From Synergistales bacterium (GTDB lineage: Bacteria > Synergistota > Synergistia > Synergistales > JAFGMB01): a DNA stretch of 64,000 bases. Below, in pieces: positions 10,049-23,155 of this stretch. How positions within the stretch are numbered: position 1 is the first letter of the stretch; each line of letters opens with the position of its first letter. The stretch lies in NCBI GenBank assembly GCA_963666205.1, contig OY762654.1, positions 704,001 to 768,000 of the forward strand, read 5' to 3'. The notes beneath the pieces were generated by a model. The model searched no databases. It was not told the origin of the DNA and was given only the letters and a program-made list of their open reading frames with translations. Made by a program: the position numbers and the translations under genes.

Positions 10049-12502
10049 TTATTGCCCTTCGCAGACAGCAGCAGAAACAATACTGGCACCTGCCACGCTG
10101 TCTCCTTCATTGAGTCTTACAACGATAGAACCCATGGCAGTCCTGCTCAGGATAGGTATCTGGTTGGATGCAACCCTTATAAGTCGTCCCTTGGAGGAAA
10201 TAACAATGATCTCATCTGAATCAACCACACCAGAACTGGATATAAGGCGTCCAGTCTTGACTCCAAGGTTCATTGCCTTAACCCCGCTCCCGCCCCGGTG
10301 ATGGGGTGTGAATTCACTGTAACAGGTCCTTTTTCCCACGCCTTTTTCGCTTATGATAAGGGAATACATTTCTTCGTTGACCACATCAAAACTTATTATC
10401 AGGTCATCTTCTGCGAGTCTCATTCCTCTTACTCCACGAGCATTTCTACCCATAGGACGAAATTCAGTTTCCGAAACCCTCAAGGCCTGTCCCTTTGATG
10501 TTATGAAGAGAAGGTGATCTTCACCCGTAGTAGCATGGACCATGGCAATATCATCACCCTCATCAAGGGAAAGGACTCTTCTGCCTGCACGTGTAAGGTT
10601 CTGTAGCTCGGATATGGGAAGACGTTTCGCCACACCCCTTCGGGTAAGGAAAAAGACAAATTTCTTTCCCTCTATAGCTGAACCTTTTATGGCGACCACA
10701 GTCTCTTCGCTTTCAAGGGAAATAAAGCGAGTTATGGGCTTCCCCTTCCCGCTTCTGGTCTCCGGGATGACATATCCCTTGATAGCCAGCACCCTTCCCT
10801 TGGATGTAAAAAGATAGATATCCTTATGGGTATTTGTGACTGCCATCAGAGATATTTCATCTTCGCCCTTCAGGGAAGCGCCCTTACGCCCCTTCCCGCC
10901 ACGACATTGGACGGCATAGTCCTCAAGGGGCTTCCTCCTGAGATAACCATCACTGGAGAGAATAACCACGATCTCGCTCTCTGGTATAAGTTCTTCCAGA
11001 GAGACCTCTGCCGCGGCATTAACTATTTCGGTTCTTCTGTCATCCCCGAATTTTTTCTTCACATCGAGAAGTTCTTCGCGGATGACAGAATCAAGGACTT
11101 TAGGATTAGCGAGGATTGTCTGATATTTTTCAATATCAGAAAGAAGCTGGGCAAGTTCGTCTTCCAGTCTTGATCTTTCCAGTCCTGTAAGCCTCTGAAG
11201 TCTCATATCGAGGATGGCCTGTGACTGTATACCTGTGAATCCGAGTTTCTGCATCAGGCCTGATTTGGCTTCACCAGCAGTTCTTGAGCCTCTGATTATA
11301 GAGATCACTTCATCAATTATATCAAGGGCCTTTACAAGACCCTCAACAACATGAGCTCTGGCCTGTGCCTTTTTCAGGCGGAAGTTAGTCCTTCTCCGAA
11401 CCACCGATCTCCGGTGATCAAGGAAAATAGTCAGCATATCCTGTATGGGCAACTCCTTGGGCTGGTTATCCACCAGGGCCAGATTAATCACACCAAATGT
11501 TGATTGCAGCTGCGTTCTGGAGTAGAGTTGCCTCAATACAAGGTTCGGATCGGCTTCCCTTGTCAATTCAATGACTACACGTAAACCATCTCTATCAGAT
11601 TCATCCCTTATGTCTGAAATACCGTCGATGTTCTTGTTCTGAACACCCTTTACGATGTTCTCTATAAGGAGAGTCTTGTTAACCATATAGGGGATCTCGG
11701 TAATTACGATACTGTCCCTTCCCCTCTTGCTTTCTTCAATGTGGGTCCGGCCACGCATAATGATCTTGCCCCGACCGGTTCTGTATGCATCGATAATGCC
11801 TTCCCTTCCCAGGATCAACCCACCTGTCGGGAAATCAGGGCCAGGAAGACGGGAAAGAAGTTCGCTGAATTCTATGTTCTCCGTTTCTGTATCAATGATA
11901 TAACATAGGGCATCAATAACTTCACAGAGGTTATGGGGTGGAATATTGGTGGCCATACCTACGGCTATACCGGAACTCCCGTTAACAAGGAGATTCGGTA
12001 TTATGGACGGTAGATACAGAGGTTCAGTAAGGGATTCATCGAAGTTGGGTCCCCAGTCAACTGTATCTTCATCAATATCGGCAAGCATGTACTCTCCTAT
12101 ATCAAAGAGTTTGGCTTCAGTGTAACGCATTGCAGCTGCTGAATCTCCGTCAATAGAACCGTAGTTCCCCTGTCCATCAACAAGGCGGTAGCGCATGCTG
12201 AAATCCTGGGCCATCCTGACCATGGTCTCATATATTGCAGAATCACCATGGGGATGATATTTACCCATTGTTTCACCTACAACCCTGGCCGATTTTTTAT
12301 AGGCCGTATTATGTTTAAGCCCCAGACCCAGCATGGAATAAAGGATCCGTCGTTGAACAGGTTTAAGGCCGTCGCGGGCATCAGGAAGAGCCCGTCCGAC
12401 GATTACACTCATGGCATAATCAAGGTAGCTGTGCTTAATCTCTTCCAGAAGAGGAAGGGGTACTACTTTGCCAAAGAGAAACTCTCCCTTTTGTTCTTCC
12501 AT
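10049..12502 (-). CDS. gyrA: DNA gyrase subunit A
   Basis: [43 protein letters not shown] and a GyrA-box-like QCRGGKG. Confidence 0.97.
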
Positions 12503-12657
12503 TTATTTCCGACCTCCAAGAAATATTACTCAAAAAAGCGGCAGACATTCTGCCGCTCCAATTTTTCTTTAACCGATATATTTTACCATGACGACGAGGG
12601 ATTTTCTCACTTCTCTGACAATCGCAACTGTTATTCGTGAAAAATCTTCAATACCTG

Positions 12658-14526
12658 CTAAAGCCCGAGCTCCTTTATTTTTAATGGACCAGGAATACCG
12701 TTTTTATTCCACCCCCGAGCCAAATAATATTCATCCAGCATTGAATCGTAATCCCTAATAGCACAATCATCTACCCCGCAATATTTACCAGATACAGGTT
12801 TCTCAAGTACCCTTGAGGGCAGATAATCATCTTTACGGGCAAAACCTTCCCTTATATTAAAAAGCCTCTGAAGGTTGTTCACTCTTTCACCTGTAGTAAG
12901 CAGTTCCCTGCCCGAAATATCCCAACCCGTAACTGAAGAGAGGAGGTCAGCATATATCTCGAGGTCAATTCCCATATACATATAGAACTTGCACGTTCCA
13001 AGCACATCCGGTATTACGCCTCCATCCTGCAGGATCTTGACAATCGCACCTTTGCCCTGCTCATCCCATCTGTCCACAAGAAGGGGGTCTGGAAGTCCCA
13101 TGGACTGAAGGCCAAAATCGATCTTTTGACTGTCATAAGCTTGAGCTTCAACGGGGTGGATGTGACACATTCCCCTATTGCCTGTTCCATAGGCAAGGGC
13201 AAGACATTTCCCAGATCTGGGATCATGGGCAGGCCCCTCCAGGCCTTTACAGTGAATCGCAAAGGAACGGGAAGCATCTCCTATGAAATCCGAAGCAGCC
13301 CTGACTCCCTTAGCCATGAGATCCCCAATGTCCTCCCTGAGAGCGATCTTCCTGATCATAACAGGAAGGTTTTCCTTTTCGCCCCAGTTCAAGCCAGACT
13401 CTTCTTCATGAATATCCTTTAAAAGGCCCTTTTCCTTGCACTCCATGAAAAATCCAATCACAGCACCTGTAGATATGGTATCAAGGCCATATTCATTGCA
13501 TAAATAGGAAGAATGAACAGCCGCATCAACATCACTGTTCATTATGAATGCTGTAAACGCTGCTATAGATTCATACTCTCCGCCATCATGTTCAGGGGTA
13601 CCGAAGGGCCCGTCAGGAACATGAACCCTGCGTCCACACCTGGCAGGACAGCCGGTATAACATCCCTGTTCCTTTATCTGGTTCCGTGCAAAAAAATGCT
13701 TTGAAATATCCACACCATTACCCCAGGAATTTGATGCCCAGTTCCTCGTAGGGAAATCACCCAACCTGTCACTGTGTTCCAATCCTCCCATGGTTCCCTG
13801 GGAACTGAAGAATGGAGTTGAAGGATCACTTTGCACTATCCCGTGAGCCTTCCGGATCTTTTTCATGAATTTTTCTCTATCAAACAAAGGGACTGATTTA
13901 TTCCCCCTCACTGCTACTGCAAGAAGGTTTTTGCTCCCCATCACAGCACCTCCGCCGCATCTCCCTGCAGCTCTGTGGCCATTCATAACTGTAGCAAAGG
14001 GAACAAGGTTTTCACCGGCCGGACCAATGGTAATGATCTCAAAACCACCTTCATTAAGTTCTTCTCTGATCCGCGTATCCTTTTCCAGTACAAGCAAACC
14101 CTCTAGAGAAGTCCCTTCACGAAACGAAACCATCCCGTTGTCGACAACAAGGTATACGGGAGAGGAGGATCTTCCCTCGATAAGAATATAGTCATATCCA
14201 GACTTCTTCATGGCAAAACCGTAGTTAGAACCCAGACGGGCTTCACCCCAGGCTCCTGTCAGGGGCGATTTGAAACATATTTCAATGCTACCACCCCCGG
14301 GAACCTGTGGCAGGGTAAGAGGACCAGTAGCTATAAAAATTTTATTACCTGGAGAAAGGGGGACCGTTCCTGAAGGTATCTCATCATAAAGGAATCTTGC
14401 ACCGATCCCTACTCCACCAAGATACTGCCTGAGCAGCTTTTCTTCCATCTTTTCGACGGAGTAAATCCTTTCAGTAAGGTCAATTCGCAAGAGGCTTCCT
14501 GCGTATCCAAACAATTCCTCTTTCAT
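12658..14526 (-). CDS. Aldehyde:ferredoxin oxidoreductase family (tungstopterin)
   Basis: IGPAGEN, AAGR.G.GAVMGSKNL, GC..CP..C, EYE, CNEYGLDTIS, YY..RGW..NG.P. Confidence 0.9.
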   Translation of the reverse strand: MKEELFGYAGSLLRIDLTERIYSVEKMEEKLLRQYLGGVGIGARFLYDEIPSGTVPLSPGNKIFIATGPLTLPQVPGGGSIEICFKSPLTGAWGEARLGSNYGFAMKKSGYDYILIEGRSSSPVYLVVDNGMVSFREGTSLEGLLVLEKDTRIREELNEGGFEIITIGPAGENLVPFATVMNGHRAAGRCGGGAVMGSKNLLAVAVRGNKSVPLFDREKFMKKIRKAHGIVQSDPSTPFFSSQGTMGGLEHSDRLGDFPTRNWASNSWGNGVDISKHFFARNQIKEQGCYTGCPARCGRRVHVPDGPFGTPEHDGGEYESIAAFTAFIMNSDVDAAVHSSYLCNEYGLDTISTGAVIGFFMECKEKGLLKDIHEEESGLNWGEKENLPVMIRKIALREDIGDLMAKGVRAASDFIGDASRSFAIHCKGLEGPAHDPRSGKCLALAYGTGNRGMCHIHPVEAQAYDSQKIDFGLQSMGLPDPLLVDRWDEQGKGAIVKILQDGGVIPDVLGTCKFYMYMGIDLEIYADLLSSVTGWDISGRELLTTGERVNNLQRLFNIREGFARKDDYLPSRVLEKPVSGKYCGVDDCAIRDYDSMLDEYYLARGWNKNGIPGPLKIKELGL

Positions 14527-14613
14527 TTCAATCTACTCCTGTATTCTCAGATATCATAATTATACGGAATATTATAAATAAGGGAGGGCCAGGCCCCCCC
14601 TTGTCATATTAAC

Positions 14614-15543
14614 CTATTTTTTAATTAAACCTTCCGATATGAGATATTCCCTTGCTATATCCTCAGGGTCTTCGCCCTCATCAAATCTGTAGTTAAGTGC
14701 AGCCATGGTTTTCTCATCGATCTTGCCACTGAGCATGCTCAAGATATCCTTAACTTTAGGATATTTATCAAGGACTTCCATTCTTACAACATAAGCTGCA
14801 CTATATGCGGGGAAATATTCAAGGTCATCTTCAAGCATTACCAGATCAAGCTTCTTGATCCTTGAATCAGTGCTGTATGCAGCTATAACATCCACTTCTT
14901 CCTTGTCTATGGCCATGTACATCATTGAATACTGCATGGGAAGTACTTCCTTGAATTCGATCCCGTAGGCTTTAGACCAGCCAGGATAGGCATCGGGGCG
15001 AGTATCGAAGTTCTCATCCCCTCCTATTTTCCAGTCTTTGGCATATTGTTTAAGATCAGAAGCCTTCTTTAAATTGAATTTTTCTGCAGTCTCTCTTCTC
15101 ACTGCCATAACATAGGTATTATTGAATCCGAAGGGGTCGATCCAGGTAAAATTGAAGTTCTGTTCAAACCCTTCCTTGACTTTTCTGAAGGTTTCTTCTT
15201 TGGATAAATTAGGCCCTTCATAACGAAGGATCCCCGTTAACTGAGTACCAGTCCAGGTAACATATATATCAAGTTCTTTACCTACCATTGCCTGATGAAG
15301 CACTGAAGAAGCAGCAAATTCAGTACTGGTTTCAGTTTTCAGACTGGTATATTCATCCAGAAGCAGTTTTGCCATCCAGGCAAGGGTTATAGGTTCATTA
15401 ACTGTCTGGGCCCCCACTTTAAGTTTACCCTTGTAATTCATGGGATTATCCTCCGCTGCGACTCCGGCACCTGCAAAAAACGCAATTGCAAAGAGAACCA
15501 GTACTACCAGTGATACTGTCCTTGTGTACTTTCCGGTTAACAT
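14614..15543 (-). CDS. Glycine betaine/choline-type (OpuCC/OsmF-like) ABC substrate-binding protein
   Basis: Signal peptide, W..PFGFNNTY, AYSTD.RI, FP.Y.A motifs. Confidence 0.85.
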   Translation of the reverse strand: MLTGKYTRTVSLVVLVLFAIAFFAGAGVAAEDNPMNYKGKLKVGAQTVNEPITLAWMAKLLLDEYTSLKTETSTEFAASSVLHQAMVGKELDIYVTWTGTQLTGILRYEGPNLSKEETFRKVKEGFEQNFNFTWIDPFGFNNTYVMAVRRETAEKFNLKKASDLKQYAKDWKIGGDENFDTRPDAYPGWSKAYGIEFKEVLPMQYSMMYMAIDKEEVDVIAAYSTDSRIKKLDLVMLEDDLEYFPAYSAAYVVRMEVLDKYPKVKDILSMLSGKIDEKTMAALNYRFDEGEDPEDIAREYLISEGLIKK

Positions 15544-15560
15544 GTATATCTTCCCCTTTC

Positions 15561-16262
15561 TTATTCTGTAAGATCTATACCAAGTTTCTCCGCTTTTCTA
15601 GCCATTCTTTTCGCCCTTTTTCGAGGGCTGTAATATTCCTGAAGGGATTTCAGAAACTGGTCTGCAAGCAGGGCAATTATTGTAGCCGGGATAGCACCTG
15701 CCAGTATTATTTCATACCTTATTGATGCCAGGCCTGAAAATATCAACTTGCCAAGCCCCCCTCCTCCTATGGCTGAAGCAAGTGTAGCCGTTCCAATTAT
15801 CCATACTGTAGCCACCCTTATTCCTGCAAGGAGAACGGGACGGGCTATGGGGAGCTGGACTTTCAGGAGAATCTGAAAATCAGTCATACCCATACCCTTA
15901 GCGGCCTGAACCAGATGCCTGGGGACACTTCTGATACCTGTGTAAGTATTCTGAATGACCGGCAACATGGCATAAAGGAAAAGAGCACAGATAGCATTAT
16001 CATTACCGATTCCGAAGAACAATATCAGAAATCCCAGAAGGGCAAGGCTTGGAATTGTCTGAAAAACATTAGCCAGACCAATAACATAGGGCGCAAGCTT
16101 TTCTTTTCTGGTGATATATATTCCCAGGGGGACACAGATAATAAGGGTCAGAGCAAGGGCTATAGCCGATATGGTCAGATGCTGTAATGTCAGTTTGAGA
16201 ATCCTGGGATAATATCTTGTAACGTATTTAAAAAATAGTACCAGAAGGTTATGCTGCATCAT
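15561..16262 (-). CDS. Opu-type ABC permease
   Basis: QTIPSLALLG, AAKGMGMT EAA loop, IGGGGLG. Confidence 0.9.
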   Translation of the reverse strand: MMQHNLLVLFFKYVTRYYPRILKLTLQHLTISAIALALTLIICVPLGIYITRKEKLAPYVIGLANVFQTIPSLALLGFLILFFGIGNDNAICALFLYAMLPVIQNTYTGIRSVPRHLVQAAKGMGMTDFQILLKVQLPIARPVLLAGIRVATVWIIGTATLASAIGGGGLGKLIFSGLASIRYEIILAGAIPATIIALLADQFLKSLQEYYSPRKRAKRMARKAEKLGIDLTE

Positions 16263-17446
16263 GCTGATCCACCTCCTGTCACTCGTCGTTTCAGTCTTCC
16301 AATAGTGAGCCGGGCTATTCCGGCTTCAGTAATTACCCCAAGAAAAATATCATGTTCGTCAATGACCGGAATAGCATAGGGTCGATCGGCAAGCATTTCT
16401 GCTGCATCCCTCATGGTTGCCTCTTCCAGGTACAGTTTACGGTCCCTTCTGACGGCATCCCTTACCGAACCACCATTCCTGGATATTCGTTTAACATCCC
16501 TAAGATAGGCCATCCCTAACCATCGGTCGGCCCGTCTGTCGACTACCTGGATACATTCCATATCCTCATCTTCCATCATTGACAGGACATCAGATGCAGA
16601 TTGCTCCGGGTAGGCCTTTGCCCATGGATCCTCAACAAGGACGGCAACGGAGTCTTCCGGAGATATCTGGGAAAGCCTGTCTTCTCCGATGAAATTACGT
16701 ACAAATTCGGTGGCAGGATTTTCCTGGATCTGTGCAGGAGAACCCATCTGTTCAATCTTGCCCGACCTCATGATAACGACCCTGTCAGAAATCTTCAGTG
16801 CCTCGTCCATGTCATGAGTAACGAAAATAATGGTCTTATGAAGTTGTTCCTGGATTGACAGAAGTTCGTTCTGCAGTACCTCTCTGCTTATAGGGTCCAG
16901 CGCTCCAAAGGGTTCGTCCATAAGAATAACTTCAGGTTCTGCAGCAAGGGCCCTGAGTACGCCTATCCTTTGTTTCTGTCCCCCGCTCAACTGGTCTGGA
17001 AGTCTGTACCGGTATTTGGAGGGTTCCAGACCAGACATCTCCAGAAGTTCGTCCACCCTTTTCATGATCTTTTTACGGGGCCAGTTATGAAGCTTCGGGA
17101 CTATTCCAATATTCTCTGCTACGGACATATGAGGCATCAGTGCAATTTCCTGAACGACGTATCCAATGCCCCTTCTCAACTGTACCGGGTCGAAGGACAT
17201 AATATCCTTCCCTGCGACAAGGATCTTTCCCGAAGTACATTCCTCCAGCCTGTTAACCATTTTCAGAGTGGTGGTTTTACCACATCCGCTTGGCCCTATC
17301 AGACTTACCAGTTCTCCCTTTTCAATAATAAGATTCAGGTTTTCTACTGCTACGGTCGAATCTTCATAGACCTTTCTTACATCCTGAAAGACGACCATAC
17401 CATTATCCAGAGCCGGTTCATTTTCAGGTAAGGCTATCTGTGTCAA
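16259..17446 (-). CDS. Opu-type ABC ATPase with C-terminal CBS-like region
   Basis: GPSGCGKTT, LSGGQKQR, MDEPFGALDP, VTHD. Confidence 0.92.
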   Translation of the reverse strand: MTQIALPENEPALDNGMVVFQDVRKVYEDSTVAVENLNLIIEKGELVSLIGPSGCGKTTTLKMVNRLEECTSGKILVAGKDIMSFDPVQLRRGIGYVVQEIALMPHMSVAENIGIVPKLHNWPRKKIMKRVDELLEMSGLEPSKYRYRLPDQLSGGQKQRIGVLRALAAEPEVILMDEPFGALDPISREVLQNELLSIQEQLHKTIIFVTHDMDEALKISDRVVIMRSGKIEQMGSPAQIQENPATEFVRNFIGEDRLSQISPEDSVAVLVEDPWAKAYPEQSASDVLSMMEDEDMECIQVVDRRADRWLGMAYLRDVKRISRNGGSVRDAVRRDRKLYLEEATMRDAAEMLADRPYAIPVIDEHDIFLGVITEAGIARLTIGRLKRRVTGGGSA

Positions 17447-17448
17447 GG

Positions 17449-18564
17449 TTAATCATCCTTCCTCAATTGATCCAGAACAGAAGTAAAATTTCGAAGTAAA
17501 CTGGAATTTTCATCAGGAGTACCCACCGTTATCCTGATAGATCTTGAATACCCCCAGCCCGAACAGGGACGAATTATTATCCCTCTATCCAGCAAAGCTT
17601 CTGTGACAACAGAAGCTTCAAGGGGAGTTGTCACAAAAATAAAGTTGGATTGGGATTGGACGGGATCAAGACCCATTTCTTCAAATGCATCGAAGAGTTT
17701 CATCCTCTCCGCTCTTATCTTTGAAATAGCTTCTTTACATTCTTCCATATCCTTCTGCAGTGTCGCAAGTGCTCCTGCTATACCAACCCGGTTAGCATTA
17801 AAGGGTTCCGACACAGTATCTATGATGGTGGCAATTTCCTTTCGACAGAGGGCATATCCGACCCTTGCTCCCGCTAGAGCATAGGCTTTGGAAAAGGTTC
17901 TGACAGACACGATGTTCTTTCCCTTTTCTATATACGAAGATATGTCGGGCAGATTATCCGGGTCTGCAAATTCTGCATATGCCTCATCCAGAACTATCCA
18001 GCACGTTGCCGGTATTTCTTCGAGAAGTATATCCAGGCTTTCTTTCCTGAACATGGTCCCTGTAGGGTTATTCGGGTTATTAAGCCAGATAAGCTTTGTC
18101 CTGGAAGAAACTGCTTTCCTGATGGATGCCATATCAATATAAAAATTATCTTTCATTGGGATTCTTATAATATCTGCTCCCATAAGTTTGGATATCTCCG
18201 AGTAAAGAGGGTAAGTTGCAACAGGGATCAGAACTTCATCTCCAGGTTCGATAAAGGTTTTACCCAGGGTCTGTAGCATCCCCTCGGCTCCATGGGATAT
18301 GCAGATATTTTCGCCTTTAAGACGATAGAGACCAGCAATGGCATCCTTGATTTTCTTGAAGGAAACATCGGGGTAAGTATTAAGTTTGACAAGTTCCTTT
18401 TCCATATATTCCAGGGCAGCAGGGAACGGACCATATGGGTTCTCGTTCGAACCCAGTTTAATCACATTACTGAGACCTTTTTCGCAGATCACTTCTTCAG
18501 TAGTCTTACCAGGAACATATGGTTCTACATTAAGAACTGCTTTTCTGATTCCGTCCAGTGACAT
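17449..18564 (-). CDS. HisC-family (class I/II) PLP aminotransferase
   Basis: KLGSNENPYGP, NNPNNPTG, DEAY.EF, RTFSKAY.LAG.RVGY. No his genes nearby. Confidence 0.88.
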   Translation of the reverse strand: MSLDGIRKAVLNVEPYVPGKTTEEVICEKGLSNVIKLGSNENPYGPFPAALEYMEKELVKLNTYPDVSFKKIKDAIAGLYRLKGENICISHGAEGMLQTLGKTFIEPGDEVLIPVATYPLYSEISKLMGADIIRIPMKDNFYIDMASIRKAVSSRTKLIWLNNPNNPTGTMFRKESLDILLEEIPATCWIVLDEAYAEFADPDNLPDISSYIEKGKNIVSVRTFSKAYALAGARVGYALCRKEIATIIDTVSEPFNANRVGIAGALATLQKDMEECKEAISKIRAERMKLFDAFEEMGLDPVQSQSNFIFVTTPLEASVVTEALLDRGIIIRPCSGWGYSRSIRITVGTPDENSSLLRNFTSVLDQLRKDD

Positions 18565-18567
18565 ATC

Positions 18568-20184
18568 TCAATAACACTCCTTCACTTTTATTTCTATCAG
18601 GGTAGGTCCCTTTTCATCAAAGGCCTGGCCAAGGATGCCGGGAAGTTCTTCAATAAAGGTAACAGTGTTTCCCTTTATTCCGTAGGCCCTTGCCAGGGCT
18701 GTGTAATCAAGACATTTATGGTCAACAGCAATGGTCTTGCCAGGATGACGGCCATTCTGATTCCGCCTGATCTCACCGTAGCCACAGTCATTCCAGACAA
18801 TAATGGGGAGAGTTAACCGAAGTTCTGATGCCACTGCAAGCTCAGGAAGAGTGAACTGGAATCCACCATCTCCAGCAAGAACACAGATCGCCTTGTCCGG
18901 GCAGGCCATTTTACTGCCTATTGCACCAGGGAGAGCTACTCCCAGGGTACCGAACCCCACCGGGTGAAGAAAAGATCTGGCTCCGGGGGAAGAGAACTCA
19001 CTGATCCCTACATAAGCAGGAGAAGTCATATCAGTCCAGATGGAGCCATCTTCGGGCAGACATCTCCTTATAATATTCATTAAAAGGACCATTGCGGGGA
19101 GTTCCTCACCCATACCGGTAACTTCGCCCAGGGATGCATAGCAGGTCTCTCTAAGCTTTATAACTTCTTCAGTCTTTACATGGCTATCGGCTTTACTCTT
19201 AATTTCACTGTCCAGAAACATTTGCACAACATCTTTTACATCACCCTCTATACCTATGTTACAGGTACGCTGATTGAAAAAAGATCCGGGATCAATATTT
19301 ACACATATAAGTTCCTTCCCAAGATCAATGGATCTTTTCCAGAAATCCGTAGGAGAAAATTCTGTACCCAGTGCTATAACAAGATCACTCTTTTGGAGGT
19401 AATCCTGAACAACAGGGAAATGAATACGGGCTCCAAGAGAAAGAGGATGGTCCTCTCTTACAACGCCCTTACCAGCACAAGTCGAAATTACAGGCGCTGA
19501 AATCGTTTCAGCCAGAAATGTAATCTCCTGACCGCATTTTACAGCTCCCCCACCAACCAGTATTACCGGATCTGTTGAACTTGAAATCTTCTCCACTGCA
19601 GATCTGGCAAGATCACTTCTGAAAATCAGACTATCAGGGCAGGAAGGTAAATTCTGATTGTCTACAGGCTGTTTCATAGCGAGTATATCCAGTGGTATCT
19701 CCACGTGGACAGGACCAGGCCGTCCTGAGATAGACAGGTGATAAGCTTCAAAAATCGACATCTCTATGGCAGAATGGCTCTCTACTCGACGACTTTCCTT
19801 GGAAACGGATGATACAAGCTGAGTGGAATTCCTTAATTCGTGAAGATAACCTGACCGGTAATGCAATGCAGATGTTTCTATCTGGCTTGATATGACAAGC
19901 ATGGGAATTGAATCATGATAAGCCTGCCCCATAGGAGTGATAATGTTGGTTAATCCAGGGCCAGTTATTACAAGGGCTACTCCGGGTTTACCGGATATTC
20001 TCGCATATCCGTCGGCCATAAAACCAGCACCCTGTTCATGCCTTGCCCCTACAGCAGTAATGGAACTTCCCATAAGATATTCATAAATATCCAGATTATG
20101 AATGCCGGGAATCCCGAATATATGTTCGACACCGAGTTTTTCCAAAGCCTGAATTACCAGTTCTCCTCCTGTTTTTAATTCCAT
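18568..20184 (-). CDS. TPP-dependent 2-oxoacid decarboxylase, AruI-like
   Basis: FGIPG.H, RHEQGAGFMADGYAR, GPGLTN..TPMGQAY.DS.P, G.LHEL, GDGGFQFTLPEL...WND.GYGEIRR. Confidence 0.8.
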   Translation of the reverse strand: MELKTGGELVIQALEKLGVEHIFGIPGIHNLDIYEYLMGSSITAVGARHEQGAGFMADGYARISGKPGVALVITGPGLTNIITPMGQAYHDSIPMLVISSQIETSALHYRSGYLHELRNSTQLVSSVSKESRRVESHSAIEMSIFEAYHLSISGRPGPVHVEIPLDILAMKQPVDNQNLPSCPDSLIFRSDLARSAVEKISSSTDPVILVGGGAVKCGQEITFLAETISAPVISTCAGKGVVREDHPLSLGARIHFPVVQDYLQKSDLVIALGTEFSPTDFWKRSIDLGKELICVNIDPGSFFNQRTCNIGIEGDVKDVVQMFLDSEIKSKADSHVKTEEVIKLRETCYASLGEVTGMGEELPAMVLLMNIIRRCLPEDGSIWTDMTSPAYVGISEFSSPGARSFLHPVGFGTLGVALPGAIGSKMACPDKAICVLAGDGGFQFTLPELAVASELRLTLPIIVWNDCGYGEIRRNQNGRHPGKTIAVDHKCLDYTALARAYGIKGNTVTFIEELPGILGQAFDEKGPTLIEIKVKECY

Positions 20185-20452
20185 CCAATCACCATCCCTA
20201 TATTTATATTATTTTCCACTACAAAACAGCTTCAGCTGAGTGAAGAAAGGGCAGGTCTGATATCCAAAAAGAGAGCTAAATGGGAATATATTTTTTTATT
20301 TATTTGGGAAAACCAGAAATTCTATCCCCACTTAATACTGTGGGGCAAACATACCCTCTTCACAAACTGAACATACACAAATTTTGACTTACGATATTTT
20401 GGCAGGAATATAGACCTGGAGAAAAGAAACAAATATTTAGAACCTAAGCTTC

Positions 20453-20501
20453 AAAATAACTCAAGAGCAATCAAATGTCAAATAAAAATTAACATTTGAT
20501 T
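20453..20501 (-). promoter_or_regulatory. Putative sigma70 promoter overlapped by an inverted repeat
   Basis: Minus strand TTGACA (20481-20476)-N17-TATTTT. AATCAAATGT-N13-ACATTTGATT at 20469-20501. Confidence 0.55.
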
Positions 20502-20546: not shown

Positions 20547-21260
20547 CTAAAACGTATTCACGTGAAGGCTTATCTTACCAGTACACCTACTCATATCCCT
20601 AGTCCCTCCACCCCTTGCGACTATCCTGGCAAGCTCCTGGACATCATTAATTGATCTTCCCAATACATATTCGATGGAAGAACCTTTGTAGACAGCAACC
20701 GAAAGAGGAGCAGAAGGCCCGACCAGCCAACATCTGCATGCCGAATCAGCAAGACTCTGCCAGGTTCCATTGACAACTGAACTTGCGCTGAGAATCAGAA
20801 GATCACTCTTCGAGGCCATCCGGCACCCCATATCAAGAGGCAGGCTTTCTCCATAATGGTCATCAATTACATGAGGTGTTATCCCTGACTTCACAATAGC
20901 CTTGTAAAGAGGCTCAATAAAACCTACCATTAATACTTTTTTACAATTTCCGAGGGACGGAATAATTTCCGAGACTTTTCCCTGAACACCAAGAATAGCA
21001 TTAACAACTGCCACAGCAGCGCAACGGTCACCGGGGTATGAAGAACCTGAAAGGTCAAGAAAGGAATTTACTGGAAGGGGAAGCTTAGAAAGAAAACTAA
21101 AAAGTTTTTCATTTCTGCTAACCTTTTCAGGAAAGGAAAAGGCAAGTCCTGCAGAATCATCATCCAGTACAGCCAGAGAGTACCGGATCCCTCTTATGAA
21201 CCTTTTTAACGATCTACCCTGAGCTTTTTCTCTTGCAAAAGAGAATAATTTTTCTTCCAT
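20547..21260 (-). CDS. DUF364/DUF4213-type Rossmann-like protein
   Basis: AVAVVNA, KVLMVG.I.P, SASSVVNGT, LVGPSAP, GG. Confidence 0.7.
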   Translation of the reverse strand: MEEKLFSFAREKAQGRSLKRFIRGIRYSLAVLDDDSAGLAFSFPEKVSRNEKLFSFLSKLPLPVNSFLDLSGSSYPGDRCAAVAVVNAILGVQGKVSEIIPSLGNCKKVLMVGFIEPLYKAIVKSGITPHVIDDHYGESLPLDMGCRMASKSDLLILSASSVVNGTWQSLADSACRCWLVGPSAPLSVAVYKGSSIEYVLGRSINDVQELARIVARGGGTRDMSRCTGKISLHVNTF

Positions 21261-21355: not shown

Positions 21356-21868
21356 ATGTCAACTAATATAGCGGTTCTTGTTGAAAAGGATTTTCACGAT
21401 CTTGAGTTCTGGTACCCCTACCTGCGTCTTGTCGAAGAGGGCCTTGACCCGGTGGTAGTAGCCCCTGTCGCACCTAGAGCCTACGTCGGGAAATATGGAA
21501 CCCAGATAGAAGCCAACTACACTCCAGCCAGTCTGGAAATGGATAATATTTCAGGGGTTGTTATCCCTGGAGGATGGGCTCCGGACAGACTCAGGATCTC
21601 TCCTGAAATAGTGCAGTTCGTAAGGGATGTCTATAACAAGGGAGGCGTTATCGCAGGAATATGTCACGCAGGCAGTCTGCTTGTTTCTGCCGGTATAATC
21701 AAAGGTAAACAGGTTACATCCTACTCAAGTATCAGGGACGATATGGTAATTGCAGGTGCTGAATGGTTAGATGAAGAGGTAGTTGTATGCGATAGGATAG
21801 TAACAAGCAGACGTCCGACTGATCTGCCATTTTTCATGAAGGCCCTGCTTAAGGAAATAAGAAAATGA
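21356..21868 (+). CDS. PfpI/DJ-1 family protein
   Basis: F.DLE..YP, IPGGWAPD.LR, ICHAG nucleophile, TSR.P.DLP.F. Confidence 0.92.
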   Translation: MSTNIAVLVEKDFHDLEFWYPYLRLVEEGLDPVVVAPVAPRAYVGKYGTQIEANYTPASLEMDNISGVVIPGGWAPDRLRISPEIVQFVRDVYNKGGVIAGICHAGSLLVSAGIIKGKQVTSYSSIRDDMVIAGAEWLDEEVVVCDRIVTSRRPTDLPFFMKALLKEIRK

Positions 21869-21904: not shown

Positions 21905-23155
21905 CTAGAACCTGTAACTGACAGAGATACCGAACATGTGAGTATCTGCATTAGTAATATCAGAATCAAAAACCCCTTCACCTGAACGACCTTCTATATG
22001 CCTCTCCTTGATATCAAGATAGGCATACGAAAGGTCATATATCCACTTGTCCCTGGTAAATCCGTAACCAATGCTGTAGATCTGACGCCCATTGGCAGGA
22101 ACTATATAGTCTACTGTCTCATCAGGGACAGGGCTATCATCATAGACATAACCAAACCTGAGCCAGGAATTTTCCGAGAGGGCATGTTCGATCCCTAACT
22201 GATAACGCCAGACATCATCCCAGTTTTTGGGAGTTGAAGTAACGTCAGAATCGGGGCCATAGAGGTCCATACCGTAATTGATGGTCAATTTATCGTAACT
22301 ACTCCATCTCGTGTATATGGCATCAGCTTCAATCGATGTTTTTTCAGTTGCCTGGAAAGCTATTCCAGCGCTGAAAGATTCGGGAAGAGTCACTTTCCCT
22401 GCTCCGGTCGTATCCGGGAAAAGATACGCCGGGGTATCTGAAGGTACGGTAAAATCAGCGTTACCCTCTATGTTCTGTTCTATCTCGCTCCTGTAGAAGA
22501 AGCCCATTCTGATACGATCAGCAGGTTTAAAGTGCATGGCAAAATTCCAGCCCCAGCCGATATCATCTCCCTTGAGCTGGGCATCGATATCCGAAGGGAG
22601 AGAAAAAAGAGCTCCAGGAATCTTTTTTTTCTGCTCGAACTCAAACCACATGACCTCCATTCCTGCGGCTATAGCGAATTTTTCCGAAAGCTTTACAGCA
22701 AGGGTAGGGGTTAGGGAGAAACTCTGGATACAGCCATAATAATTATTATATTTTCCCGGCCAATCCTGATCGAATTCGGATCCCAGACCAAAACGTGATG
22801 TCGCAGATATACCGAACCAGTATTTCTCATTAAGCTGTTTTGTATAGTAGAAGTGAGGAGGAATCCAGATCTTATCCACATTGGAAAAACTCTGACCCAA
22901 ATCATTGAATCCTACATTCAGACTTGGCTTAATAGCGGTAAGACCGAACATTATGTTTTCACCCTCAAGCTGGGTGATACCAGCAGGATTATACACCAGA
23001 GCAGAAGGATCATCTGCTCTTCCCACCAGTGTTCCTCCCAGGGCATTTCCTCTGGAACTGAATTCATAAAGGGCAAAACCTGCCGCAAAAGAAGAACCAG
23101 CAACGCAAAGAATCAAAAATATCGAAAGAAAAATAGCACGAATAAACTCTCTCAA
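21905..23155 (-). CDS. OmpP1/FadL family outer-membrane hydrophobic-compound transporter
   Basis: Signal peptide then AGF.L.E.S, NPAG, FGL, W.D.WRY..G, C-terminal YRF. Confidence 0.9.
   Translation of the reverse strand: MREFIRAIFLSIFLILCVAGSSFAAGFALYEFSSRGNALGGTLVGRADDPSALVYNPAGITQLEGENIMFGLTAIKPSLNVGFNDLGQSFSNVDKIWIPPHFYYTKQLNEKYWFGISATSRFGLGSEFDQDWPGKYNNYYGCIQSFSLTPTLAVKLSEKFAIAAGMEVMWFEFEQKKKIPGALFSLPSDIDAQLKGDDIGWGWNFAMHFKPADRIRMGFFYRSEIEQNIEGNADFTVPSDTPAYLFPDTTGAGKVTLPESFSAGIAFQATEKTSIEADAIYTRWSSYDKLTINYGMDLYGPDSDVTSTPKNWDDVWRYQLGIEHALSENSWLRFGYVYDDSPVPDETVDYIVPANGRQIYSIGYGFTRDKWIYDLSYAYLDIKERHIEGRSGEGVFDSDITNADTHMFGISVSYRF

Follow-up and report, generated by a model that had tools for sequence, protein, structure and literature searches.

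What does a betaine-type importer do in one operon with an aminotransferase, a 2-oxoacid decarboxylase and a tungsten oxidoreductase? The question is raised by a stretch of 64,000 nucleotides (nt), here called the window, from the genome of a Synergistales bacterium (contig OY762654.1, positions 704,001 to 768,000 of the forward strand). Six co-oriented minus-strand open reading frames (ORFs) between positions 12658 and 20184 of the window encode, in operon order, a thiamine diphosphate (ThDP)-dependent enzyme, an aminotransferase, the ATPase, permease and substrate-binding protein (SBP) of an ATP-binding cassette (ABC) importer, and an aldehyde:ferredoxin oxidoreductase (AOR). With a little better than even confidence, the six genes are read here as one functional module that would combine uptake with an anaerobic, oxidative conversion of the Ehrlich type, the substrate being an amino acid whose side chain carries a permanent or strong positive charge.

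From gene content, gene families, co-inheritance, paralogue status and pocket signatures, all of them observed, we infer the direction of flux, the substrate class and each chemical step. The OpuB/OpuC-type ABC system would import the compound, holding its onium group in the Trp/Tyr cage of the SBP, where the carboxylate would meet a conserved Arg/Thr pair and the alpha-ammonium group an acidic loop. The HisC-family aminotransferase, with its two invariant Glu residues, would produce the 2-oxo acid, the AruI-like ThDP enzyme would decarboxylate it to an aldehyde one carbon shorter, and the tungsten-type AOR would oxidise the aldehyde to the acid and reduce ferredoxin; in genomes without an AOR orthologue, another aldehyde-oxidising enzyme presumably performs this last step. 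The end product, an onium or guanidino acid, might serve as a compatible solute or be excreted. Since uptake costs ATP and the route contains no substrate-level phosphorylation, the gain to the cell would lie in the amino group, the low-potential electrons and a betaine-like product rather than in fermentation energy.

Co-inheritance of the gene set

Gene families were assigned by Pfam and NCBIfam profile searches. An earlier note on the window had described six co-oriented genes, the first four at most 3 nt apart or overlapping, and the ORF coordinates bear this out: the spacings in operon order are 3 nt, 2 nt, a 4-nt overlap, 17 nt and 87 nt. Conservation was followed in 40 genomes of the same order, of which 16 hold an orthologue of the ThDP enzyme (43-84% identity); about 20 kb around each of these orthologues were compared. 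The core of ThDP enzyme, aminotransferase, ATPase, permease and SBP stands in the same order in 14 of the 16 loci, spread over four family codes (f1, f5, f7, f9), with identities of 61-90% for the ATPase and 71-91% for the permease. The closest public matches to the ThDP enzyme come from metagenome-assembled genomes (MAGs) of Synergistaceae and Aminobacteriaceae, and an Aminobacteriaceae MAG (L002) holds all six genes, with the AOR gene upstream. Moreover, when metagenomes were scanned with the aligned aminotransferases of the operons, 80 loci were returned; 11 are close (at least 48% identity), eight of these with the full core (four together with an AOR gene), one a 2-kb fragment and two (L123 and L124) of variant arrangement. 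The recurrence of the core in relatives, in L002 and in metagenomes is the conservation of neighbourhood that the earlier note had proposed as a check.

Such an arrangement is far beyond chance, and the enzyme types of an Ehrlich route (transaminase, 2-oxoacid decarboxylase and aldehyde-oxidising enzyme) are encoded and inherited together. All-versus-all ORF clustering of 17 and then 29 loci returned no further recurrent partner gene, such as a regulator or an enzyme acting downstream, and the neighbours checked against Pfam were unrelated.

The AOR is bound to the core in its distribution. Its orthologues (50-89% identity; threshold at least 50%, the next-best matches falling to 39-40%) occur in nine of the 40 relatives, all among the 14 core-bearing genomes, and in none of the 24 relatives without a ThDP-enzyme orthologue. 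The gene adjoins the operon in seven of the nine, lies about 10.5 kb off in G012 and on another contig in the fragmented G021, and is adjacent too in L002 and in the four metagenome loci. Structure matches place the protein nearer to the Pyrococcus furiosus AOR (1aor, 5e-106) than to formaldehyde:ferredoxin oxidoreductase (4e-87) or WOR5 (6e-56). The three clustered Cys have the pattern C-x3-C-x3-C, against C-x2-C-x3-C in 1aor, and align with it, as do a fourth Cys and the motifs EYES and CHI; we take the Cys residues to be [4Fe-4S] ligands and the EYES and CHI residues to belong to the active site. Identity to the four other AORs of the genome is 24-35%, and the genome carries, away from the operon, a gene for the tungstate-binding protein WtpA (382 bits, cut-off 355). 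Judged by sequence, the operon protein is a tungsten AOR sensu stricto, and, its clade being confined to core-bearing genomes, it is a dedicated partner of the operon.

Loci that vary the theme bear on the substrate class. L123 (647-12221; L124 is near-identical) combines a GntR gene and an aminotransferase with a LarA-like 2-hydroxyacid racemase, a PotD-like ABC importer, a GlcD/GlcF-like 2-hydroxyacid dehydrogenase and an MttB-family methyltransferase. The aminotransferase of both loci is 50% identical to that of the operon and keeps the pocket residues E94, E253 and F255 described below, and the methyltransferase gene is uninterrupted. Members of the MttB superfamily are known to demethylate trimethylamine and quaternary amines. 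What the two loci encode resembles a pathway, so far undescribed, for a cationic 2-hydroxy or 2-amino acid that carries methyl groups, and methylated onium substrates are indicated because this sister aminotransferase adjoins the methyltransferase. In another locus, L003, an orthologue of the ThDP enzyme is accompanied by an IclR regulator, a D-2-hydroxyacid dehydrogenase, an aminotransferase and a carrier of the major facilitator superfamily. Over the variant loci, the constant element would be a cationic 2-oxo acid, made from either a 2-amino or a 2-hydroxy acid.

The two relatives that depart from the core (G020 and G036, of one genus; loci L100 and L101) hold the gene of the ThDP enzyme without aminotransferase or importer. 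It adjoins a TusA-DsrE fusion and an isochorismatase-family gene there, and the enzyme may be put to a different use.

Importer, enzymes and competing readings

The importer appears, by its cage, its CBS-bearing ATPase and its permease, to be a quaternary-ammonium system of the OpuB/OpuC type. The ATPase scores 370.1 bits on TIGR01186 (proV; cut-off 326.6), with a CBS match at residues 341-379, and the best NCBIfam matches of the permease are ProW and a choline permease, both under cut-off. The SBP reaches 187.5 bits on PF04069, and its matches in the PDB are OpuBC/OpuCC (6eyg, 3.5e-53), EgtUC (4e-46) and Archaeoglobus fulgidus ProX (6e-46). Aligned with OpuBC (3r6u numbering), residues Q46, W97, T100, N142, Y144, Y223 and Y247 of the SBP correspond to Q19, Y71, D74, N115, Y117, Y197 and Y221. 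The four-aromatic cage, as defined for subcluster F-III (PMC9732360), consists here of W97, Y144, Y223 and Y247, and it is invariant, together with the base residue N142, in all 17 operon-linked SBPs. The same holds for R182 and for D176, N178, F179, D180, T181 and D184 of a loop, of which E177 is kept in 16 of the 17, as is T100.

R182 lies 38 residues past the second cage Tyr, the same spacing as between Y341 and R379 of EgtUC, in which R379 binds the ligand carboxylate with T296 and K242 (PMC9732360). The Lys position (K242) is a Gln in the SBP, as in OpuBC, and T100 is kept. The protein looks shaped for an onium head group plus a carboxylate, and the extra acidic residues could take an ammonium group. 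In its relatives the Arg/Thr pair holds the carboxylate close to the onium group, as with glycine betaine and ergothioneine; the short onium-carboxylate distance implied by this argues, by analogy, for a short chain over a long one.

The SBP is the sole binding protein of the OpuB/OpuC type in the genome. Five other SBPs of the OpuAC family share 38-53% identity among themselves and no more than 26% with that of the operon. They lie outside the window on G000:C1, at 490-491, 520-521, 889, 1375 and 1961 kb; the 520-kb SBP alone has adjacent permease- and ATPase-sized ORFs, and this set adjoins the WtpA gene, the other four looking like orphan SBPs. When the six SBPs of the genome were compared by tblastn with 80 genome-contig loci in search of OpuAC-type proteins beside other AruI-like genes, only L002 matched. 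Genes of the BCCT and MttB families, looked for in the genome as carriers or users of a betaine product, were not found there.

Such an importer might serve osmoprotection (glycine betaine, choline, carnitine) and share nothing but regulation with the enzymes, for instance under salt or nutrient stress, the enzymes themselves having ordinary amino acids of the cell as substrates (aromatic, branched-chain, methionine or histidine). This rival survives best, although it is an unlikely one. SBP, permease and CBS-bearing ATPase are typical OpuB/OpuC parts, they form the only OpuC-type system of a genome without BCCT carriers, and across the operons of the relatives the importer parts are better conserved (58-91%) than the enzymes (43-84%); furthermore, the HisC family includes aromatic aminotransferases (4r2n; PMC4703992) and AORs oxidise amino-acid-derived aldehydes broadly (PMC6365974). 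Mere co-regulation, however, sits poorly with a gene order fixed over four family codes and metagenomes, and with an aminotransferase pocket that holds two invariant Glu in place of the hydrophobic set of the aromatic enzyme. The ThDP subfamily is, moreover, otherwise tied to cation importers and betaine-aldehyde-type dehydrogenases, and relatives of both enzymes pair with PotD-type importers and an MttB homologue.

The ThDP enzyme has its cofactor motifs intact (HEQGAGFMADGYAR, with the catalytic Glu, at residue 49; GDGGF at residue 438, then ...WND). Its best NCBIfam model is NF005712 (PRK07524; 5-guanidino-2-oxopentanoate decarboxylase, AruI) at 498.5 bits, against 386 for the runner-up model; the score is borderline, as it narrowly misses the cut-off of 500 bits. 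Relatives of the Synergistota-type clade score 460.5-512.6 bits, versus 778 and 867 for two Pseudomonas proteins. The four motifs from which the earlier note had assigned the enzyme to the AruI group (MGQAY.DS, G.LHEL, QFTLPEL and GYGEIRR) are all present in the translation. MGQAY.DS and G.LHE are common to the whole AruI-like subfamily and not found in the genome's own acetolactate synthase; QFTLPEL and GYGEIRR are closer to a second Pseudomonas paralogue group than to the group adjoining an AruH-like aminotransferase. A FastTree phylogeny of 95 proteins was rooted on the genome's ilvB and included several rows of atypical composition, the characterised P. aeruginosa AruI not being among the rows. 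It gathers all operon-linked ThDP proteins and one Desulfobacteraceae protein in a clade of 20 rows (support 100), and a separate clade of 69 rows, mostly Pseudomonadota and likewise with support 100, contains both Pseudomonas groups.

What stands of the assignment, and of the comparison with AruI and IlvB that the earlier note had proposed, is that an AruI-type model is the best one and that the enzyme is distinct from ilvB. Membership proper does not stand, given the score below cut-off, the well-supported separate clade, outside that of the AruH-linked proteins, and the partner aminotransferase, which is HisC-type and not AruH-type. On sequence criteria, the enzyme is AruI-like without being an AruI, and represents a divergent sister group.

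In the first Pseudomonas group (e.g. L017) the ThDP enzyme is encoded with a class-I (GntC-like) aminotransferase and an aldehyde dehydrogenase. The second (L041:8963-17568 and 14 similar loci) combines a LysR gene and the ThDP enzyme with a betaine-aldehyde-type dehydrogenase and a PotD-type ABC importer; it has no aminotransferase, includes the top NF005712 score (867 bits) and may use a substrate other than 2-ketoarginine. The recurrent company of the AruI-like subfamily thus seems to be cation importers and aldehyde-oxidising enzymes, a cationic theme. Within the genome only two genes have a TPP_enzyme_N domain, and the second is ilvB (TIGR00118, 726 bits), between ilvC and ilvN, whose product is 30% identical to the operon enzyme. 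As ilvC-ilvB-ilvN is located elsewhere in the genome, the operon enzyme is not the housekeeping one.

The family name suggests a further rival, an anaerobic copy of the Pseudomonas AruH/AruI route from arginine through 2-ketoarginine and 4-guanidinobutyraldehyde to 4-guanidinobutyrate. The best model and the shared subfamily motifs speak for it, the acidic aminotransferase pocket would suit a guanidinium group, and Synergistota are amino-acid fermenters. What makes it doubtful is the sub-cut-off score, far under those of the two Pseudomonas proteins, the separate clade, the match of two of the four motifs to the group that does not adjoin an AruH-like gene, the HisC-type aminotransferase, whose sister is linked to an MttB-family methyltransferase, and an SBP that keeps a quaternary-ammonium/sulfonium cage; arginine importers normally use a different class of SBP.

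Far less probable is a synthetic or carboligating direction, in which the AOR would reduce an imported onium acid to the aldehyde with reduced ferredoxin, followed by ThDP-dependent ligation and amination. The acetolactate synthase-like superfamily does include carboligases and lyases (PDB matches), given low-potential donors, AORs can reduce non-activated acids (PMC9295118), and the known ligands of OpuC-type systems are acids, alcohols and betaines rather than amino acids. Nevertheless, the nearest ThDP family model is a decarboxylase, related modules carry aldehyde dehydrogenases of the NAD type, which are oxidative, and no known natural product fits the scheme.

The aminotransferase passes TIGR01141 (hisC; 316.4 bits, cut-off 276.55), and its closest solved structures are 3ffh (HisC) and 4r2n (the Mycobacterium tuberculosis aromatic aminotransferase, ArAT). 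The positions that set specificity in the M. tuberculosis histidinol-phosphate aminotransferase (HspAT) and ArAT (PMC4703992) were mapped through the alignment with 4r2n and one with E. coli HisC (NC_000913). Residues for pyridoxal phosphate and for the carboxylate or phosphate are kept (K226, N166, D193, Y196, R234 and R332, for K214, N157, D184, Y187, R222 and R322 of E. coli), and the HisC-type substrate pocket (E. coli D85, E86, Y110 and, from the partner chain, Y243) is not (Table 1). R344 is invariant in a 15-sequence alignment and aligns to the R335 position in metagenome hits. The combination of E94 with E253/F255 recurs in ten of the 11 close metagenome copies, eight with G95 and two (L123/L124) with N95, and the remaining close copy, L119, has G at position 94. 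The combination is absent from all 69 weaker metagenome hits (below 48% identity). The two invariant Glu, which line or adjoin the side-chain pocket, would fit a cationic side chain.

Table 1. Residues of the side-chain pocket in the 17 operon-linked aminotransferases and in two HisC-type references
Position	Operon (copies)	E. coli HisC	Second HisC-type gene of the genome
Pocket acid	E94 (17/17)	D85	D
Residue after the pocket acid	G95 (17/17)	E86	E
Pocket aromatic	Y118 (17/17)	Y110	F
Pocket aliphatic	L120 (17/17)	M112	E
Beside the partner-chain residue	E253 (17/17)	A241	C
Partner-chain aromatic	F255 (17/17)	Y243	Y

The second HisC-family protein of the genome is 28% identical to that of the operon and reaches 251.9 bits on TIGR01141, under cut-off. 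Its orthologues occur in 27 of the 40 relatives, 12 of them without an orthologue of the ThDP enzyme, and adjoin hisD in G012, G021 and G037; the genome's his operon (335-341 kb) contains no hisC. On this evidence the gene is the more likely biosynthetic HisC, even though the HisC model gives its higher score to the operon copy. Given the separate ilvB and a second HisC-type gene with hisD-adjoining orthologues, both operon enzymes can be regarded as dedicated paralogues. That they are instead the cell's HisC and its acetolactate synthase in a chance neighbourhood, as the TIGR01141 score and the his operon without hisC might suggest, is largely refuted by ilvC-ilvB-ilvN elsewhere, by the hisD-adjoining orthologues, by the changes D85E, E86G, A241E and Y243F relative to E. 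coli HisC in all 17 copies and by the conserved synteny. The pathway logic of the earlier note (import, transamination, ThDP-dependent decarboxylation and ferredoxin-linked oxidation) gains from the same synteny, from the core-confined AOR clade and from the separate housekeeping ilvB- and hisC-type genes.

Surroundings, leader and occurrence

The coordinates of the operon and its neighbours are collected in Table 2.

Table 2. Features of the operon and its flanks (positions in the window)
Feature	Position	Strand	Details
ThDP-dependent 2-oxoacid decarboxylase, AruI-like, own Synergistota clade	18568..20184	-	538 aa; Pfam TPP_enzyme_N/M/C
HisC-family (class I-beta) aminotransferase, altered side-chain pocket	17449..18564	-	371 aa; Aminotran_1_2, TIGR01141
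ProV/OpuCA-type ABC ATPase with C-terminal CBS domain	16259..17446	-	395 aa; PF00005 + PF00571, TIGR01186
ABC permease, single gene	15561..16262	-	233 aa; PF00528 (BPD_transp_1)
Periplasmic SBP, OpuBC/OpuCC/EgtUC-type (subcluster F-III), signal peptide	14614..15543	-	309 aa; PF04069 (OpuAC)
Tungsten-type AOR sensu stricto, operon-specific clade	12658..14526	-	622 aa; PF02730 (AFOR_N) + PF01314 (AFOR_C)
Terminator-like GC-rich hairpin, SBP-AOR gap	14580..14602	-	10-pair stem, 7 GC pairs, weak T tail (consensus scan)
Promoter-like site and leader of about 260 nt	20185..20481	-	TTGACA-17-TATTTT at 20481-20453, 10/12 consensus matches
DUF364/DUF4213 gene, 'putative heavy-metal chelation'	20547..21260	-	
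PfpI-family gene	21356..21868	+	
FadL-type outer-membrane channel	21905..23155	-	

The operon is flanked downstream by gyrA and upstream by the DUF364/DUF4213 gene. This gene and the PfpI-family gene are also found at the G001 and G003 loci, and the PfpI-family gene only at the contig-limited G002; the FadL-type gene is found at G001 and G003. None of the three upstream genes has synteny with the operon outside the family.

The leader is alignable within the genus only, and Rfam at gathering thresholds found no family in the operon or the leader. The sole Rfam match in the window is a thiamine pyrophosphate riboswitch (RF00059, 7834-7942, plus strand, 76.6 bits), about 10 kb from the operon and unrelated to it in position. 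A riboswitch or conserved leader was considered and dropped on these two grounds, the distance of the match and the narrow alignability of the leader. A GC-rich hairpin of the leader (about 20342-20322, minus strand) is kept in the genus and not in other genera, and may be a regulatory element; the strain of RNA-library run X4 has a 15-nt insertion beside it, at 20360.

The genome is a single 2.95-Mb contig with 44% G+C. Of the words sampled from the window, 51-82% occur in runs labelled marine sediment metagenome that belong to two studies (P2 and P3), and 22-25% in runs from a third study (P5); RNA libraries are among the runs of P2 and P5. Runs with small word shares (X16-X20) were left out of the habitat call. 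Four RNA-library runs from two marine-sediment studies yielded contigs about 99% identical to the operon. In run X4, one contig (17435-20434) spans aminotransferase, ThDP enzyme and leader, another (14466-17155) bridges the hairpin and reaches 61 nt into the AOR gene, and further pieces fall in the AOR region (12228-13041 and 13124-13474). Word depth in X4 is 52.5 in the bin that lies below 20478 and drops to about 6 in the next bin up, beside the predicted promoter. The AOR-gene bins 13570-14197 are almost uncovered in the four runs, which, these being assembled contigs, is silent on transcription.

Substrate candidates, precedents and meaning

Arginine or another cationic amino acid, such as a methylated lysine, was the substrate proposed in the earlier note. 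Arginine is not specifically indicated, and the methylated onium option is favoured by the SBP cage and the MttB-linked sister aminotransferase. A tentative first choice is S-methylmethionine (SMM), which would yield dimethylsulfoniopropionate (DMSP). Placed in a HisC-type pocket, its sulfonium would occupy the delta position, as the ring nitrogen does in histidine; the distance from onium to carboxylate would be the same as in carnitine, and the finding of the organism's DNA in marine sediment would favour it. SMM would also be the 2-amino partner of the 2-hydroxy sulfonium acid 4-dimethylsulfonio-2-hydroxybutyrate (DMSHB); one shared 2-oxo acid would explain the swap of aminotransferase and 2-hydroxyacid dehydrogenase in relatives. 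On the other side, we know of MttB enzymes for N-methyl groups only. DMSP-aldehyde is unstable (PMC11464771), which would favour a dedicated oxidase.

N-epsilon-trimethyllysine, giving 5-trimethylammoniovalerate (delta-valerobetaine), is the second and somewhat less likely candidate. Its cationic nitrogen would take the chain position of C-zeta in 2-ketoarginine, which suits an AruI-like enzyme, and trimethyl-5-aminovalerate has been described as a trimethyllysine derivative (PMC13604290), but the molecule would be long for SBP and HisC-type pocket alike. Arginine, homoarginine or methylarginines, converted to guanidino acids, rank lower as improbable substrates that would fit the family name and neither the cage nor the MttB link; histidine-type compounds are very unlikely, and other substrates would take up the remainder of the ranking.

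A bolder proposal, also improbable in our estimate, would make the operon the anaerobic representative of a larger, undescribed family of modules built around an onium 2-oxoacid decarboxylase, which form DMSP from imported sulfonium precursors. SMM would enter through the aminotransferase, and DMSHB, in relatives, through the 2-hydroxyacid dehydrogenase; both entries would share one 2-oxo acid and DMSP-aldehyde. If true, the operons would supply candidate genes for DMSHB decarboxylation and SMM transamination and point to anaerobic DMSP producers in marine sediment. Equally bold would be the conversion of trimethyllysine to delta-valerobetaine, a host-active microbial metabolite.

Several points weigh against a single module for a cationic amino acid. 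The relatives are kin, and the counts overstate their independence. The AOR gene is set apart by the terminator-like hairpin (14602-14580) within the 87-nt gap, and five of the 14 core-bearing relatives (G002, G003, G004, G010 and G030) have no AOR orthologue at the threshold. The kept Arg/Thr pair of the SBP would suit short betaines more than the long chain of, for example, trimethyllysine, and to our knowledge no ligand of an SBP of the OpuB, OpuC, ProX or EgtU type has a free alpha-amino group. The 2-oxo acid 4-dimethylsulfonio-2-oxobutyrate was reportedly found very unstable by Rhodes et al. in 1997, which weakens the SMM option. The ThDP enzyme could alternatively be a carboligase or a lyase, both present in its family. 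That the operon aminotransferase passes the HisC cut-off and the second gene fails it (316 versus 252 bits) makes a role in histidine synthesis possible. The ATP cost of ABC uptake, in a route without substrate-level phosphorylation, would make a poor energy-yielding fermentation, so that the benefit is itself presumed. Finally, the RNA data are assembled contigs, which attest presence in RNA libraries rather than transcript structure and may include DNA.

The chemistry proposed for the operon is of a known kind, Ehrlich-like or of the arginine-transaminase type. The arginine transaminase pathway of P. aeruginosa (AruH, AruI, KauB, GbuA) likewise transaminates a cationic amino acid, decarboxylates it with an acetolactate synthase-like ThDP enzyme of the same NCBIfam subfamily and oxidises the aldehyde. 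The operon differs in a ThDP enzyme of a separate clade at the family cut-off, a HisC-type instead of an AruH-type aminotransferase, a ferredoxin-linked tungsten AOR instead of an NAD-dependent dehydrogenase, a built-in betaine-type ABC importer and an anaerobic host. In Bacillus subtilis, OpuB/OpuC and the NAD-dependent choline-oxidising enzymes GbsAB import an onium precursor and oxidise it via the aldehyde to a betaine-type acid, and the likeness extends to the SBP (3.5e-53, with the cage kept). The precursor there is an alcohol and needs neither transaminase nor decarboxylase, whereas importer and enzymes here form one operon.

The decarboxylase of Aromatoleum aromaticum EbN1 belongs to another ThDP family. 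Its anaerobic phenylalanine degradation, through a transaminase, phenylpyruvate decarboxylase and phenylacetaldehyde dehydrogenase or AOR, is an anoxic Ehrlich-type route too, in which a tungsten AOR can oxidise an amino-acid-derived aldehyde (PMC6365974); it differs in an aromatic substrate, a three-subunit, NAD-reducing back-up AOR and the lack of a linked importer. Closest to the SMM option is the plant Melanthera (Wollastonia) biflora, which forms DMSP from SMM by transamination and decarboxylation to DMSP-aldehyde, the unstable aldehyde being oxidised by a dehydrogenase (PMC11464771, PMC11306096), and the decarboxylation of DMSHB in the transamination pathway can be likened to that of the operon (PMC11306096). 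The enzymes for transamination and decarboxylation have not been identified in these plant and algal routes, and a sulfonium substrate of the operon is a candidate only; according to PMC11306096, knowledge of DMSHB decarboxylases is still lacking outside DsyGD.

New are the enzyme clades, the built-in betaine-type importer and the ferredoxin-linked last step. A limited full-text literature search returned no description of the gene combination, of bacterial genes from trimethyllysine to valerobetaine or of a link between OpuC and SMM; the AOR clade of the operon may be listed in the neighbourhood dataset that supplements PMC13328260. There is a real but unproven chance that the operon fills an open gap in onium-compound metabolism.

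If the proposal holds, anaerobic amino-acid fermenters would possess a conserved route for the uptake and conversion of amino acids that bear a positive charge and are probably methylated, and one more clade of tungsten oxidoreductases would gain a physiological role, in a group in which, according to a 2026 survey, five of 92 clades contain an enzyme with a defined one (PMC13328260). The candidate substrates touch on the enzymes of SMM transamination and DMSHB decarboxylation, on the genes leading from trimethyllysine to trimethyl-5-aminovalerate and on the handling of guanidino compounds without oxygen. As the four soluble proteins of the operon can be expressed and screened directly, the substrate question is testable. 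The labels 'HisC', 'acetolactate synthase-like' and 'glycine betaine transporter' in Synergistota genomes would then hide a dedicated pathway.

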